DNA from: Methanoregula sp.
Lineage (GTDB): Archaea; Halobacteriota; Methanomicrobia; Methanomicrobiales; Methanospirillaceae
Assembly (NCBI GenBank): GCA_041645055.1
Contig: JBAZQT010000001.1
Coordinates: forward strand, 7,842-71,841
Direction of reading: 5' to 3'
Length of the DNA stretch: 64,000 nucleotides
The notes under the pieces were generated by a model that saw nothing but the letters and a program-made list of their open reading frames with translations, was not told where the DNA came from and did not search any database. Positions within the stretch are counted from its first letter, which is position 1. The number at the start of each line of letters is the position of its first letter. The translations under genes were made by a program, and so were the position numbers. Positions 5,849 through 63,437 of this stretch are shown here, in pieces.

Positions 5849-6063
5849 TCTTTTTTCAAGCTGGCAGGTCTGGAAAAATATAAAAAAATTTCCTCCTGAA
5901 AAAAAATTTAAAAAGATTATTGAATATACAATCTACCCGTTTTCTTTGTTAAAATTTGTGAAAATTCATTCCTAAACGATGCACAAAAAGAGCTAAACAC
6001 TACCGTTTATGATAGATTTTTTTTAAGCGATCCGATACGGTTCACCAAACACCATAAGTCGTC

Positions 6064-6702
6064 TCATCCAAATCCCTTCAGGTAAGGTATTGCCAGCAGG
6101 AGTAACAACCCCGCACCGAAGCATACAATCATTATCCCGGATATCCGGTTAATCAGCCTCAGGTGCTTAGCACTGATATGGGAACGCACGGAACCAATCG
6201 CACCACAGAGAATGATCCACCAGAGCGTAGAGCCTAAAAAAACACCGCCAACAAACTCCGATGCAGAAAGAACAGAATTTTCATGAAACACAACGCCAAA
6301 ACCGGGCAGGATGGCGATAAAGAAGATGAGCGTTAACGGATTTGCAATCGCGATGGCCACCATCGACAGGTAATCTTTGAGGTACGTCTCGCGCTCGGTT
6401 TTCACGCTTATAGGTGCGGGTATTGAGAGGAATATTCGTATTCCCACTACGATAAGAACTAAACCCGCAGCGAGCCGGAGCGGGAACTGGTAGGCCAGAA
6501 TCAGTCCGGATATGGCAGTAAGCCCGAAGAAGGTGACAGCAGCATAAAACGAATCTGAAGTTGCCACCCCGGTACCCGATATGATCCCGTGAAGCCTGCC
6601 ATTAGTGACCGCCCTCTGGATACATATGAGGGCAATCGGACCAACCGGTACAGCAAGCGTGAGGCCGATGATCACTCCCTGGATGAATAAACTGGTGTCC
6701 AT
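6064..6702 (-). CDS. LysE/RhtB family amino-acid efflux translocator
   Basis: 212 aa with about 6 TM segments. N-terminus FIQGVIIGLTLAVPVGPIALICIQRA..G...G is typical of the LysE family. Confidence 0.85.
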   Translation of the reverse strand: MDTSLFIQGVIIGLTLAVPVGPIALICIQRAVTNGRLHGIISGTGVATSDSFYAAVTFFGLTAISGLILAYQFPLRLAAGLVLIVVGIRIFLSIPAPISVKTERETYLKDYLSMVAIAIANPLTLIFFIAILPGFGVVFHENSVLSASEFVGGVFLGSTLWWIILCGAIGSVRSHISAKHLRLINRISGIMIVCFGAGLLLLLAIPYLKGFG

Positions 6703-58965: not shown

Positions 58966-59187
58966 TTACCCACCAGAGACGATCTCAACATCACGAAATC
59001 CCACAAAGGTATTGAGATGTTCGGGCTGTGAATCTACCATGCAAAGCTCGATAACTTCCTTGATGCGGACGAGCGCTTCATCGATAGTTTTTCCAAATGT
59101 GTGGCAGCCTTTGAACAGGGGGCAGGATACGATGAAGATCCCATCCTCATCTGTTTCGACAATGATGGGAACATGAATCGTTTTCAT
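58966..59187 (-). CDS. HicB-like antitoxin-fold protein (UPF0150), no adjacent HicA
   Basis: 73 aa from ATG 59187: MKTIHVPIIVETDEDGIFIVSCPLFKGCHTFGKTIDEALVRIKEVIE matches the HicB N-domain pattern (..edG.y.a..P.l.GC...G.T.eEA..n..EAI). Confidence 0.7.
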   Translation of the reverse strand: MKTIHVPIIVETDEDGIFIVSCPLFKGCHTFGKTIDEALVRIKEVIELCMVDSQPEHLNTFVGFRDVEIVSGG

Positions 59188-59329
59188 ATACACATCATCG
59201 GAATTCACGCATTAATTCTTTTTTGCAAGCACGTTTCACCAATTTTTTAATGTTGGATCGTTTTTTTTAATAACACATTGTTGACGGTGAACAAAAAAAT
59301 GACCGGATCTTATTTTTTACCGGATATCT

Positions 59330-60115: not shown

Positions 60116-60294
60116 GATAAGTCAAACGATCCGATGAAATTTCTACCTTTTCTATTGCGTGCGGGGTGCGGGAGATCTCTTGCCCGTCCTACCGGAAGCC
60201 GGCATGAATGATGCACCGGGTGAGCTTCCCCATTCCATTCTTAACAACAACATTGATCCGCATCAATTCCGAGGAACACAAGTATGAATATCTT

Positions 60295-60561
60295 ATGGCA
60301 TACCAATACACTATCATGCACAGTCCGCTGGACTATACTGTTCATGCAAAGACTATGATGCAGGAACGGATGATCCAGGAAGACTGGGTAACGAGCACCG
60401 TCAGCGCTCCTGAGATGGTTGAGGAGAAGCGGGATGACGAGAGACACTACCTGAAACGGATCCCGGAACATGCGGGAAAATTCCTGCGGGTAATTGTCAA
60501 CCATTCTGTCCATCCGCCACGGGTGATCACGGTGTTCTTTGACAGGAGAGTGCAGCCATGA
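60295..60561 (+). CDS. DUF4258-like small toxin-type protein
   Basis: 88 aa from ATG 60295. ..HA...M.ER.I.E.WV..T...P........D..HYLK.I.E..G..LRV.VN.....VITVFFDR resembles DUF4258. Overlaps the next gene by 4 nt. Confidence 0.7.
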   Translation: MAYQYTIMHSPLDYTVHAKTMMQERMIQEDWVTSTVSAPEMVEEKRDDERHYLKRIPEHAGKFLRVIVNHSVHPPRVITVFFDRRVQP

Positions 60562-60758
60562 AAGTGACCGTTGATAAAGAGGCCGATGCGCTGTATATGC
60601 GCCTTTCCGATGCCCGTATCCATGACTCGGAAGAGGTGAAGCCCGGCGTGATCCTGGATTATGACGACCAGAATAATCTTGTCGGGATAGAACTTCTCAG
60701 GATATCGGAGCGGGTTCCCGCAGCCAGTCTGAAAACCGTGATGATCGAATCGGCATAA
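60558..60758 (+). CDS. DUF2283-like small antitoxin-type protein
   Basis: 66 aa. MKVTVDKEADALYMRLSD..I..SEEV.PGVILDYD..N.LVGIELL is the classic DUF2283 pattern. Confidence 0.75.
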   Translation: MKVTVDKEADALYMRLSDARIHDSEEVKPGVILDYDDQNNLVGIELLRISERVPAASLKTVMIESA

Positions 60759-60839
60759 TGCAGGAATTATCCTGATGCAATGGATGATTTTCACATCCTG
60801 TGACAGGATATGATCAATACTTTATTTAACATCCGGTGA

Positions 60840-60869
60840 CCGGGCCGGCATTCTCGGCCCGGCGTTTTT
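60840..60869 (+). terminator. Hairpin plus T-run downstream of the DUF4258/DUF2283 pair
   Basis: Perfect 8-bp stem CCGGGCCG (60840-60847) / CGGCCCGG (60855-60862) with a 7-nt loop, followed by CGTTTTT. Confidence 0.5.
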
Positions 60870-60990
60870 GATTGAAATTTTTTCACCAGACTTTGATTTT
60901 ATTTTTTAACCGGATGTTGGTTGAAAAAATCCGGGCGGACTTTGACAAGAAAAATTTAACCGGACCTTGCATGAAAATTTTTCAGCGAAA
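60870..60990. repeat. Short array of about 5 units of the 18.2-19.0-kb repeat family, opposite orientation
   Basis: CACCAGACTTTGATT, AACCGGATGTTGGTTGA, GGGCGGACTTTGACAAG and AACCGGACCTTGCATGAAAA are reverse-complement variants of CAATCAAAGTCYGGTTGA (compare TTCATGGCAAGGTCCGGTT at about 18923-18941). Confidence 0.55.
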
Positions 60991-61222
60991 ACGCGATTGT
61001 GTTTAAAAAAAATTATCCGGGCAATCGATCCGCTCTGCGACAGAAACGAGCGTGACCCCCTCTCTCCCCCAGAGGAGGAGGCAGCCCAAAGGGAGCACCC
61101 CCTCGACTCTATTGAAAATTTTATCAAAGCTCGGTGGGCCATCGGCAATTTGGGGAAAATGACCGGGTAGTGGATCAACGACTTCCTAAAAATTTTACAA
61201 AAACGGATGCTGAAACCGTCTG

Positions 61223-61257
61223 CCTCGCCGTGCCTCGGAGAGGCCCTGAGGCGGGGA
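61223..61257. repeat. GC-rich 35-nt hairpin element, copy 2 (inverted relative to copy 1)
   Basis: CGCCGTGCCTCGGAGAGGCCCTGAGGCGGGGA (61226-61257) is the exact reverse complement of 36653-36684. Confidence 0.7.
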
Positions 61258-61269
61258 ATCCTCAATAAA

Positions 61270-61690
61270 ATCGATCATTTTCCGCTCCCAAAAACCGAGT
61301 GAACTCCGATCGAAAAAAACCCCAATCCGGGCATTTTGTGGGCTTTGATTTCTCTAACTCGCCAAAATGGGCTCCATTCTGATGAAAATGAGGCCCTGTT
61401 CGATCAAAAACTCCTGGAGTATTTGTATGAACAGGGGTCCATTTCATGCTTGATAGAGTGGGACTCCGGGCGATTATTCAGGTCCAGAGATGATCTATTT
61501 CAAGCCCTTTACGGGCTCCGTTTGCCCATTTCCTGATCCTTTTTTCGGGATCAAAGGAGGCTTGTGTCCACCACTTGGGAAAATACTGTTTTAATGGGTT
61601 ATTTCGCGAAAATAACAGTTTTTAGAGCGATTTCATCCTGCAATTTGGCGGGCTCCGGTTGGTCGCGTTTTTTGCCACCTCATTTCAGGT
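61270..61690 (+). repeat. About 420-bp non-coding element, copy B (paralogue of 53900-54325)
   Basis: Carries the same ordered conserved blocks as copy A, in the same orientation. Hairpin CCCTGTTC (61394-61401) / GAACAGGG (61429-61436). Ends with GCGGGCTCCGGTTGGTCGCGTTTTTTG. Confidence 0.75.
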
Positions 61691-61947
61691 CATAGGGGGT
61701 GAGAAAGGCGATGGAAAGGGCCACTGTTGCCCGAAGATACGATCACGTCGGAGAAATGGAGACATGGGGGGATGAAAACGTGGGTGGTGTTTGACGGTGA
61801 CAATAAGCAGTGTGCCACACTGAAGAACGTGGAATGGTGTAAGAGGATGGATAACCAGGTTGAGGATTTTAATTGTGACAACAGAAGACACCAAAAAATT
61901 TCGATGCGTTAGAATTAATGGAGATTGAATTAACGAGATTTTTTATT

Positions 61948-62439
61948 CTATCTTTGCAAAATAATTTTTGCCGCAGTTCCAGTTATAAGTTCAACAATTA
62001 ATTCTCGAATAACAGTTTGTGCATCACCACGAATTTTGCCAAGAATCTCTCTGATTTTATAGGCTGCGGGCTTTGTATTTGGAGTATCTCGAACAATATC
62101 ATCTAATGCAGTTATGAATTCCTTTCGTTCTGATAATTCTAACTCATTCAGTTGGTCAATAATTTTTTTAACTGCACAGAGTTGCAATTCTGTCCATGGA
62201 TATGGCTTACCGCAATTATGACAATAGAGTGGGATAGTATAATCGTTTAAAGATGAGGACTCGTGATAAAGATTAATGCCTTGGATGGGATATTTACAAA
62301 ATTCACATTTAAGAAGTGTCTGTTCACCACATTTCGGACAAAAATTTTTGAGATATTCTGGTTCGGTTATGGCACATGCGGTGATTAAATGGCCGTTCTT
62401 GCATATTTGAGCGACATCATAACCGTTACCGACATACAT
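61948..62439 (-). CDS. Zinc-ribbon protein with C-terminal helical domain (resembles DUF2321 from memory)
   Basis: 163 aa. YDVAQICKNGH, CPKCG..(8)..CEFC, and YCHNCGKPYPWTE form paired CxxC knuckles. The locus is strongly AT-rich. Confidence 0.65.
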   Translation of the reverse strand: MYVGNGYDVAQICKNGHLITACAITEPEYLKNFCPKCGEQTLLKCEFCKYPIQGINLYHESSSLNDYTIPLYCHNCGKPYPWTELQLCAVKKIIDQLNELELSERKEFITALDDIVRDTPNTKPAAYKIREILGKIRGDAQTVIRELIVELITGTAAKIILQR

Positions 62440-62644
62440 ACATTTGGATAATGTTCTGTGATAAAATATCTTTTTGCAAATTGTCCAGTTTTAAGAAAGG
62501 CACGAATTAATTGGGTGTTATTTAAAGGTAATTCTAAACGAAAAATTTTATAAATTCACAGTTGATTATGTGTTAATTTCGAAAATGATTGGAATTTGCT
62601 AAATCATTATATTTAATTGCAAATGACATCATTCGATAGTTACT

Positions 62645-63373
62645 ATGATACAATGTGACCTTAAATCGCTTTATCAACACCTTGAATTAGTCCAAAATAA
62701 TTATGATTCTGTTGAAGAATTACTAAAAGAGGATCTCTTGGATGGATGGAGTAGACATCAAATTAAAACTGATTTTGATTTGAAACCAAATGATTTTTTA
62801 AGATTTGCTAAAAACGATTTAAAAGCAAACTACGAACATCATCTAATTAACAGTCTAACAAATATAAAACGTACAATTGATTGTCAAATAGATTCAATAT
62901 TTGTTGGATTGGGAATAAATACAAAAAAATCGGAAACAGAACATTGGAACTTTCCCGAAAAAATAGATATATTGAATAAATTAGGTATTCTTTCACCCGA
63001 GATTTTAGGTATTATTAATACCCAGAGAAATGATTTAGAGCATAGATATTCGAATCCGAATGAAAAAAATGTAAAATTAGCCTTGGATATTGCACAGTTA
63101 TTTCTAAAATATACTGAAAAATATCTAAATGATATGCCATATGACGGGGTGTTAATTGAACATTTAAACATAGATTCACATTTAGATGTAAATTTAGATT
63201 ATAAAAACAGAAAATTTCGATTTGAGGGTAAGGAATATAGTAAAGATAATTTTCACTCAATAAAAAATTCGTATGTAAAAGAAATACTTGAAGAGAATCG
63301 TGATGAGTATTTGAAATATTTAAAATGGTTTTTATTAATTACTGATATGGAATATACATTATATAAAACTTAA
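62645..63373 (+). CDS. Putative HEPN-domain protein (Rx4H motif)
   Basis: 242 aa, all-helical in appearance. QRNDLEHR at residues 127-134 (R codon 63026-63028, H codon 63041-63043) fits the HEPN R-N-x-x-x-H motif at the start of a helix. The locus is very AT-rich. Confidence 0.55.
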   Translation: MIQCDLKSLYQHLELVQNNYDSVEELLKEDLLDGWSRHQIKTDFDLKPNDFLRFAKNDLKANYEHHLINSLTNIKRTIDCQIDSIFVGLGINTKKSETEHWNFPEKIDILNKLGILSPEILGIINTQRNDLEHRYSNPNEKNVKLALDIAQLFLKYTEKYLNDMPYDGVLIEHLNIDSHLDVNLDYKNRKFRFEGKEYSKDNFHSIKNSYVKEILEENRDEYLKYLKWFLLITDMEYTLYKT

Positions 63374-63437
63374 ATGTAACGTGTTGGCATTAATATCTTT
63401 TAATTAATTCATAGTCGATTGTGTGCTAAAAAAAAAA

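Follow-up and report, generated by a model that had tools for sequence, protein, structure and literature searches.

Canonical HEPN domains carry an R-N-x3-H motif where helix 3 ends, and in the DUF4145 proteins of this superfamily they are sometimes fused to zinc ribbons (PMC3710099). Among the described systems closest to the locus treated here are two single proteins of the DUF4145 type. RAZR (PD-T7-4; ring-activated zinc-finger RNase) unites a Zn-ribbon with a DUF4145 domain, assembles on phage proteins that form rings, and cleaves RNA, its catalytic residues R146 and H154 being required for function (PMC13017515). BxaP, the BREX-associated DUF4145 protein, is encoded by a single gene that has been found experimentally to protect against phage, and its mechanism of activation is still unknown (PMC10799925). 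We compared these systems with a locus of Methanoregula sp., which lies in a window of 64,000 nucleotides (contig JBAZQT010000001.1, positions 7,842 to 71,841 of the forward strand; all coordinates refer to this window). Two genes are transcribed divergently at the locus, a DUF2321 gene on the reverse strand (61,948-62,439; 163 residues) and a HEPN-family gene on the forward strand (62,645-63,373; 242 residues), which is a stand-alone member of an uncurated DUF4145-like family. They are separated by a spacer of 205 bp (62,440-62,644). A preliminary description of the window gave the coordinates and lengths of the two open reading frames (ORFs), their divergence, and the spacer exactly, and treated the genes as a candidate toxin or defence module. 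In our best reading the islet comprises two independent, horizontally acquired single-gene cassettes that adjoin each other within a small variable region and do not form a two-gene system. By analogy to RAZR and BxaP, the 242-residue protein is probably a one-protein antiviral toxin.

The HEPN identity of the 242-residue protein is visible in its predicted structure. The AlphaFold2 model built from close homologues (predicted local distance difference test score (pLDDT) 83.4, predicted template modelling score (pTM) 0.80) contains helices at residues 48-60, 64-88, 103-113, 118-133, and 140-162, before ending in a sheet of four strands (164-215) and a terminal helix. Helix 103-113 is part of an insert (residues 89-117) between the HEPN helices. 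HEPN proteins or HEPN-type structural-genomics entries make up 21 of the 25 top Foldseek matches in the PDB. The list is headed by the HEPN toxin 7ae6, and the matches include the HEPN-MNT toxin entries 7ae6/7ae8, 2hsb, 2q00, 1wwp, HepT (7bxo/5yep), Csm6, 4nqf, and the HEPN domain of sacsin. AF_0298 (2hsb) aligns with a template modelling (TM) score of 0.70 at 2.7 Å, and the SSO protein 2q00 with one of 0.74; the alignments to 2hsb, 2q00, and 3mfn cover about 120-130 columns with target-normalised TM scores of 0.69-0.74 and root-mean-square deviations of 2.7-3.4 Å. A Foldseek search of the model against viral predicted structures returned nothing significant. The motif R128-N129-D-L-E132-H133 closes helix 118-133, so that the protein agrees with canonical HEPN domains in both the fold and the position of the motif. 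The preliminary description had derived its HEPN call from the peptide QRNDLEHR, which is present as residues 127-134, and this call is supported by the four-helix fold found around the motif, the HEPN matches of the model, and the invariance of the R-N-x2-E-H motif. It had, however, placed the motif at the start of a helix, while the motif is located at the C-terminal end of helix 118-133, the canonical HEPN position.

By sequence alone, the 242-residue protein matches nothing in Pfam, NCBIfam, PADLOC, PHROGs, or the PDB sequences, and the family profile does not find anything among the PDB sequences even at E<=10. A word-indexed homologue search yielded only 6 relatives, and the family seemed tiny. 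When 1.84 billion cluster representatives were searched exhaustively with a profile, the count rose to at least 1,374 clusters (50% identity) at E<=1e-3, with 980 at E<=1e-10. Most members have lengths of 210-270 residues. They occur in archaea and bacteria with a patchy distribution over the phyla of both, and their database entries are unnamed or annotated as 'hypothetical protein' and have no Pfam assignment. In a tblastn search of 50,697 phage records no member was found. The HEPN core (residues ~45-163; 62,777-63,133, forward strand) is the sole well-conserved part of the protein, the mean frequency of the top residue being 0.56 in the core versus 0.20-0.21 in the N- and C-terminal parts. 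The C-terminal part is poorly conserved and contains many gaps, and many bacterial members can be aligned over the HEPN core only. In the window protein it forms a variable α/β module of four strands and a terminal helix (residues 164-242; 63,134-63,370, forward strand), which may have a sensory or regulatory role. An R-x4-H pattern in a protein of 242 residues would by itself be weak evidence. The predicted catalytic motif R128-N-D-L-E-H133 (63,026-63,043, forward strand) is nevertheless more than a chance occurrence because it is invariant across the family: in 141 family representatives R128, E132, and H133 are conserved to 100% and N129 to 96%, and alignments A1 and A4 likewise show no variation at these residues. 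The 141 representatives share a second conserved cluster (N69, N73, K75, and R76) in the long helix before the motif helix. CxxC pairs are absent from the sequence of the 242-residue protein. One member from the representative search, P0027 (321 residues), has an N-terminal Mrr_N winged-helix domain (E=3e-27) fused to the HEPN core of the family. Such an Mrr_N-fusion architecture is typical for restriction and defence proteins. The proteins constitute a large HEPN family of the DUF4145-like type, which has no name and which Pfam, NCBIfam, and PADLOC do not capture.

Among curated families, DUF4145 (PF13643) comes closest on the profile matches, but the 242-residue family falls short of formal membership. 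At E<=1, 12 of 42 diverse members match DUF4145, all of them below the threshold (best E=9.3e-5). The family consensus reaches 18.7 bits (E=0.0019; profile positions 30-87) versus a gathering threshold of 23.1 bits, which is not attained by the window protein either, as it does not match DUF4145 at E<=1. HepT-like matches were obtained for two of the 42 members (E ~0.02) and a RiboL-PSP-HEPN match for one, so that DUF4145 is the only curated family matched repeatedly by members and by the consensus. Both families have an all-helical HEPN core with an R-N-x3-H motif closing helix 3, a sporadic distribution in bacteria, archaea, and mobile contexts, and variable accessory domains; the Mrr_N fusion of P0027 parallels the restriction-endonuclease-type fusions of DUF4145 (PMC3710099). 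They differ in that the consensus match spans only the C-terminal two-thirds of the DUF4145 profile and in that the 242-residue family has its own N-terminal segment and C-terminal α/β module. RAZR is a single protein with a divergent DUF4145-type HEPN RNase that causes abortive infection and has no antitoxin (PMC13017515), features that the 242-residue protein would share. In addition, the HEPN domain of RAZR has been compared with 7AE6 (PMC13017515), which is the top Foldseek match of our model. However, RAZR has a Cys4 zinc ribbon fused to its N-terminus (PMC13017515), whereas the 242-residue protein does not contain a zinc finger, has an R-x4-H spacing, and carries a different C-terminal module. 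The zinc ribbon of DUF2321 is encoded by a separate gene next to it, and this gene does not co-occur with the family. Neither the window protein nor the family consensus matches any of the PADLOC models, including that of PD-T7-4. The similarity to BxaP is that one gene joins a DUF4145-type HEPN domain to an unrelated accessory domain, but in BxaP the HEPN domain is N-terminal, the C-terminus is HEAT-like, and the gene is BREX-associated (PMC10799925), whereas the 242-residue family has neither BREX nor any other fixed association. The HEPN-MNT systems (HepT-MntA, type II/VII) share the HEPN fold and the Rx4H motif with the window protein and provide its best Foldseek matches (7ae6/7ae8, 7bxo, and 5yep), but the window protein is about 100 residues longer and has extra domains. 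An MNT antitoxin gene is not found beside the window gene, whose flanking genes encode DUF2321 and an AAA+ ATPase, and a nucleotidyltransferase is not among the 25 commonest Pfam families of 144 immediate neighbours of the family.

The relation of the two genes to each other was judged from samples of both families. On the HEPN side, 92 loci (0.90 Mb) were collected, of which 12 contain close homologues and 80 are genome loci with more distant ones, found with a 10-sequence alignment, from Methanosarcina, Methanoregula, Methanobacterium, Bathyarchaeota, Bacteroidota, Proteobacteria, and Firmicutes. The DUF2321 side comprises 170 loci (1.13 Mb) from 7 exact-protein look-ups, 3 phages, 80 viral contigs, and 80 metagenome contigs. 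DUF2321 is present in none of the 92 HEPN-family loci according to tblastn and a profile search of the six-frame translations, and a profile search did not find the HEPN family in any of the 170 DUF2321 loci, even at E<=1. Marginal matches to the DUF2321 profile (15-17 bits) in two HEPN loci (L009 and L089) were rejected because they are generic CxxC double zinc ribbons that do not contain the signature motifs of the family. Because reciprocal co-occurrence is zero, the pairing claimed in the preliminary description is unsupported; the adjacency of a DUF2321 and a HEPN gene was seen in this window only. Other partners were not found either. Clustering by blastp of the 433 neighbours within three genes to either side in 83 non-redundant HEPN loci gave a largest cluster of 3, and when the 144 immediate neighbours were scanned with Pfam and PADLOC, no recurrent family emerged, none being common to more than 3 neighbours. 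These neighbours are mostly housekeeping or metabolic genes, with integrases, HipA, methyltransferases, PglX, DRT, AbiO, Nhi, and Mads components scattered among them. The DUF2321 family also has no conserved neighbour across its loci beyond lineage-specific contexts, and the closest DUF2321 and HEPN loci share no synteny with the window outside the genes themselves. Could the two genes nevertheless form a toxin-antitoxin or defence module, perhaps a 'split RAZR' with its zinc finger and DUF4145-HEPN parts in two polypeptides, whose zinc ribbon serves as antitoxin, sensor, or partner? They adjoin each other, diverge from a common AT-rich spacer, and bring together a zinc ribbon and a DUF4145-type HEPN domain, which cooperate within RAZR (PMC13017515) and are in some cases fused in DUF4145 proteins (PMC3710099). 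However, the divergent orientation means that they are not one operon, their GC contents are 10 points apart, each is found elsewhere alone as its own AT-rich islet with homology ending at the edges of the gene, DUF2321 has lineage-specific contexts of its own, and PADLOC does not detect PD-T7-4. Together with the missing co-occurrence, this makes a module highly improbable. The best reading of the adjacency is that two solo cassettes landed at one variable spot, and we hold with high confidence that the 242-residue protein has a HEPN fold and that it does not form a pair with DUF2321.

The composition of the DNA and the extent of homology show how these cassettes are delimited. As noted in the preliminary description, the locus lies in the most AT-rich DNA of the window: the 1-kb bin 62,001-63,000 has a GC content of 0.313, the lowest of 64 bins, followed by 0.382 in the next lowest, and the mean of the window is 0.501. 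The low-GC block extends from about 61,900 to 63,400 and has sharp edges at a resolution of 100 bp. It is uneven, with values of 0.360 in the DUF2321 gene, 0.254 in the spacer, and 0.261 in the HEPN-family gene. Every close homologue of the latter forms a sharp islet of ~0.9-1.1 kb with a GC content of ~0.30 within DNA of 0.55-0.65 and in an unrelated context. Over 78 loci, the median GC content of the HEPN gene is 0.31 versus 0.39 in the flanks, and in 51 of the 78 the gene falls below its flanks by over 5 points. In the same way, each of the closest DUF2321 genes forms an AT-rich islet of a single gene (0.36-0.39 versus 0.56-0.62). In tblastx comparisons with the region 50-64 kb of the window, HEPN loci match only 62,641-63,380 and DUF2321 loci only 61,934-62,485, and no flank is in common. 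Given these islets and the confinement of homology to the genes, both genes look horizontally acquired, as had been proposed. The HEPN islets of the close homologues have no conserved ORF inside and no conserved flanks. Upstream, the similarity between the window and three of these loci (L001, L003, and L010; alignment A2) starts about 40 nucleotides before the ATG and includes a TATA-like element (ttatatttaatt; 62,607-62,618, forward strand), which is located 27-38 nucleotides 5' of the HEPN start codon and whose position is kept in close homologues; downstream, it fades shortly past the stop codon. Therefore, each cassette appears to carry its own promoter. The TATA-like element may act as the promoter of a near-leaderless HEPN mRNA, and the spacer would provide separate promoter regions for the two genes. 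The spacer does not contain a forward-strand ORF of at least 40 residues or an Rfam match. Atypical GC content is the only signature of a mobile element at the islet. There are no significant direct or inverted repeats flanking the two genes that could represent terminal repeats or target duplications, no recombinase ORF is present in 58.9-64 kb, where the ORFs of 60.8-61.9 kb are devoid of Pfam matches, and Rfam including its tRNA models gave no match for an attachment site in 58.5-64 kb, a region for which no dedicated tRNA scan was made.

Several HEPN-family loci show unusual gene structures. The gene is split into two ORFs in L018, L063, L083, and L084 (at ~5900-6700 in each) and truncated in L072 (5992-6351), which points to pseudogenes at about 5 of the 80 genome loci. 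Two metagenome-assembled genomes (MAGs), Methanosarcina MSAR-AD2 (L013 and L015) and one of M. barkeri (L014 and L019), each contain two diverged HEPN paralogues at different loci, indicating repeated acquisition or diversification within Methanosarcina. In an Anaerolineae MAG (MWTB01000015.1; L023:5327-6618), two family genes encoding 225 and 205 residues are arranged in tandem on the same strand with an overlap of 4 nucleotides. These may encode a heterodimeric HEPN pair, unlike the solo arrangement elsewhere. The split copies, the MAGs with two paralogues, and the tandem pair fit a dispensable gene of the conflict type.

The 163-residue protein had been called DUF2321-like in the preliminary description, and it is indeed a full-length, high-scoring member of this family. 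Its ORF matches PF10083 with E=5.7e-47 and 159.7 bits (cut-off 24) over profile positions 2-157 of 157 and phrog_16447 with E=2e-33, and it is solitary like the other members of these families, from which it does not differ. The peptides CPKCG, CEFC, and CHNCGKPYPW are all present. They belong to an N-terminal double zinc ribbon with the ligands C13/H17, C34/C37, C45/C48, and C73/C76, of which C34, C37, C45, C48, and C76 show no variation and C13, H17, and C73 are conserved to at least 90%. A tail of four to five helices follows. The AlphaFold2 model (pLDDT 92) shows the zinc-ribbon module followed by a helical bundle, for which Foldseek gave no informative match in the PDB (all E>=0.2), and a literature search yielded nothing relevant to DUF2321 function. 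A cryptic HEPN domain in the helical tail was considered and rejected, since the two families are unrelated by hhalign, which gives a probability of 0.1%. In Methanoregula-type contigs (L094-L099; e.g. L095:2134-4498), an AT-rich DUF2321 gene is located 12 nucleotides downstream of a conserved pair of an OB-fold gene (~418 residues) and a 200-residue gene, in housekeeping DNA that is GC-rich and otherwise syntenic. The position represents either an insertion spot used repeatedly or, in that lineage, a linkage of DUF2321 to the OB-fold/200-residue pair. Within the metagenome loci L186-L238, DUF2321 follows two same-strand paralogous genes of ~433 residues in 14 cases (e.g. L194, L204, and L215) and precedes a conserved 264-residue gene in 10. 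In the temperate phages Lj928 (L100:3480-3956), phi879 (L101:3489-3959), and phiRS7 (L102:3492-3959) it is a lone gene transcribed against the direction of the early, replication, and recombination genes around it. This solo antisense placement recalls accessory ('moron') and superinfection-exclusion genes, which is only a resemblance. All these contexts are lineage-specific and unlike that of the window. In our reading, the DUF2321 gene is an independent solo accessory gene, which travels without a partner elsewhere too, temperate phages included.

For the HEPN protein, a mode of action can be proposed by analogy. In uninfected cells the protein would be kept inactive. A trigger derived from a virus or another invader would be recognised via the variable C-terminal α/β module or via higher-order assembly, upon which two HEPN domains would dimerise or oligomerise to form a composite active site. 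Non-specific cleavage of RNA, or cleavage of tRNA or rRNA, could then lead to translation arrest and abortive infection. Such a mechanism has been demonstrated by experiment for RAZR (PMC13017515). We infer it here because the single-protein DUF4145-HEPN systems RAZR (PMC13017515) and BxaP (PMC10799925) have been validated, and the Mrr_N-HEPN fusion of P0027 points in the same direction. The scattered defence and mobile genes among the neighbours of the family add a defence flavour. In PADLOC, the protein and its family remain unmatched, and defence genes such as PglX, DRT, and AbiO appear as scattered neighbours of the homologues. As an overall explanation, two solo cassettes with the HEPN protein as a self-contained sensor-plus-RNase abortive-infection toxin seem reasonably likely to us, while the specific defence mechanism is tentative and has, in our estimate, a little less than an even chance of being correct.

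Two other explanations of the HEPN protein have to be weighed against a self-contained toxin. It could be the toxin of a conventional toxin-antitoxin system, whose antitoxin would be a very small ORF (<40-60 residues) or an antisense or cis RNA as in type I/III-like systems. HEPN toxins usually need neutralisation and no neutralising partner is visible here; in addition, the upstream neighbour is co-oriented in 55 of 75 loci and within 50 nucleotides in 19 of the 75, and several long antisense ORFs overlap the HEPN gene, although AT-rich DNA yields such ORFs readily. However, neighbour families do not recur, the spacer of the window has neither a forward-strand ORF of at least 40 residues nor an Rfam match, and the short stretches of similarity upstream and downstream of the gene leave little room in conserved DNA. 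Since the single-protein DUF4145 systems also do not need an antitoxin (PMC13017515, PMC10799925), we regard a hidden antitoxin as unlikely. Alternatively, the protein might have a role outside of biological conflicts, in RNA processing or in regulation by nucleotide or ligand binding, or might be catalytically silent, just as housekeeping (Las1, Ire1) and non-catalytic families exist among the HEPN proteins (PMC3710099). The mostly ordinary metabolic genes in the immediate neighbourhood would suit such a role, but it is hard to reconcile with a fully conserved catalytic motif, a patchy distribution over phyla that is not accompanied by synteny, the strongly atypical composition with sharp islet edges, the existence of pseudogenised copies and of genomes with several copies, and the fusion of one member to Mrr_N. 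Thus, a role of this kind is quite unlikely.

Some points weigh against the self-contained toxin as well. The E-values of the Foldseek matches are weak (7e-3 or higher), and no sequence-based match reaches the threshold of any curated family. The RNase activity, toxicity, and antiviral function of the family are all predicted by analogy, and because neither PADLOC nor the phage collection contains a member, a defence role rests on analogy and on mobility. Autoinhibition and the sensing of a trigger by the C-terminal module are pure inference. Finally, a one-off functional coupling of DUF2321 and HEPN in this particular genome would be compatible with the comparative data taken alone.

Other genes of the region belong to the context of the locus and not to the HEPN unit. 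A putative toxin-antitoxin pair is encoded on the forward strand at 60,208-60,758 by the genes for DUF4258 (60,208-60,561; Pfam E=8.9e-13) and DUF2283 (60,558-60,758; E=4e-18), whose ORFs overlap by 4 nucleotides. A gene with a HicB-like antitoxin domain (PF15919) is located on the reverse strand at 58,966-59,208; with 29.5 bits versus a cut-off of 27 it is barely above the Pfam threshold, and the ORF list does not contain an obvious adjoining HicA toxin. The Pfam matches confirm these genes at the distance of 1-3 kb at which they had been placed and bear out the view of a small neighbourhood of toxin-antitoxin and accessory genes. A scan of 58.5-64 kb with Rfam gave nothing above one chance-level match. 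The stretch of ~1.1 kb between the DUF2283 and DUF2321 genes (60,800-61,930) lacks a convincing ORF and matches neither Pfam nor Rfam. This stretch includes a 23-nucleotide direct repeat (60,905-60,927 and 60,955-60,977; 83% identical) and several AAAATTTT-type tracts, and could consist of decayed genes or represent a regulatory or non-coding region.

The analysis removes a false lead, because the DUF2321/HEPN 'pair' is unfit for catalogues as a two-gene system. It also defines a sizeable uncurated HEPN family whose catalytic signature is clean, whose structural model is good, and whose members clearly behave as solo genes. In a broader sense, this family might represent an unrecognised but widespread single-protein antiviral system with a HEPN RNase effector and a fast-evolving α/β sensor, spreading as a promoter-bearing AT-rich cassette of ~1 kb that has no linked recombinase. 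This is conceivable, although we consider it rather doubtful. If true, such a system would be common in methanogens, other archaea, and bacteria, and the current defence-finding tools would miss the family entirely. Archaeal immunity is poorly charted, and for methanogens the 242-residue family offers a concrete candidate, open to testing, for abortive infection by a single protein.

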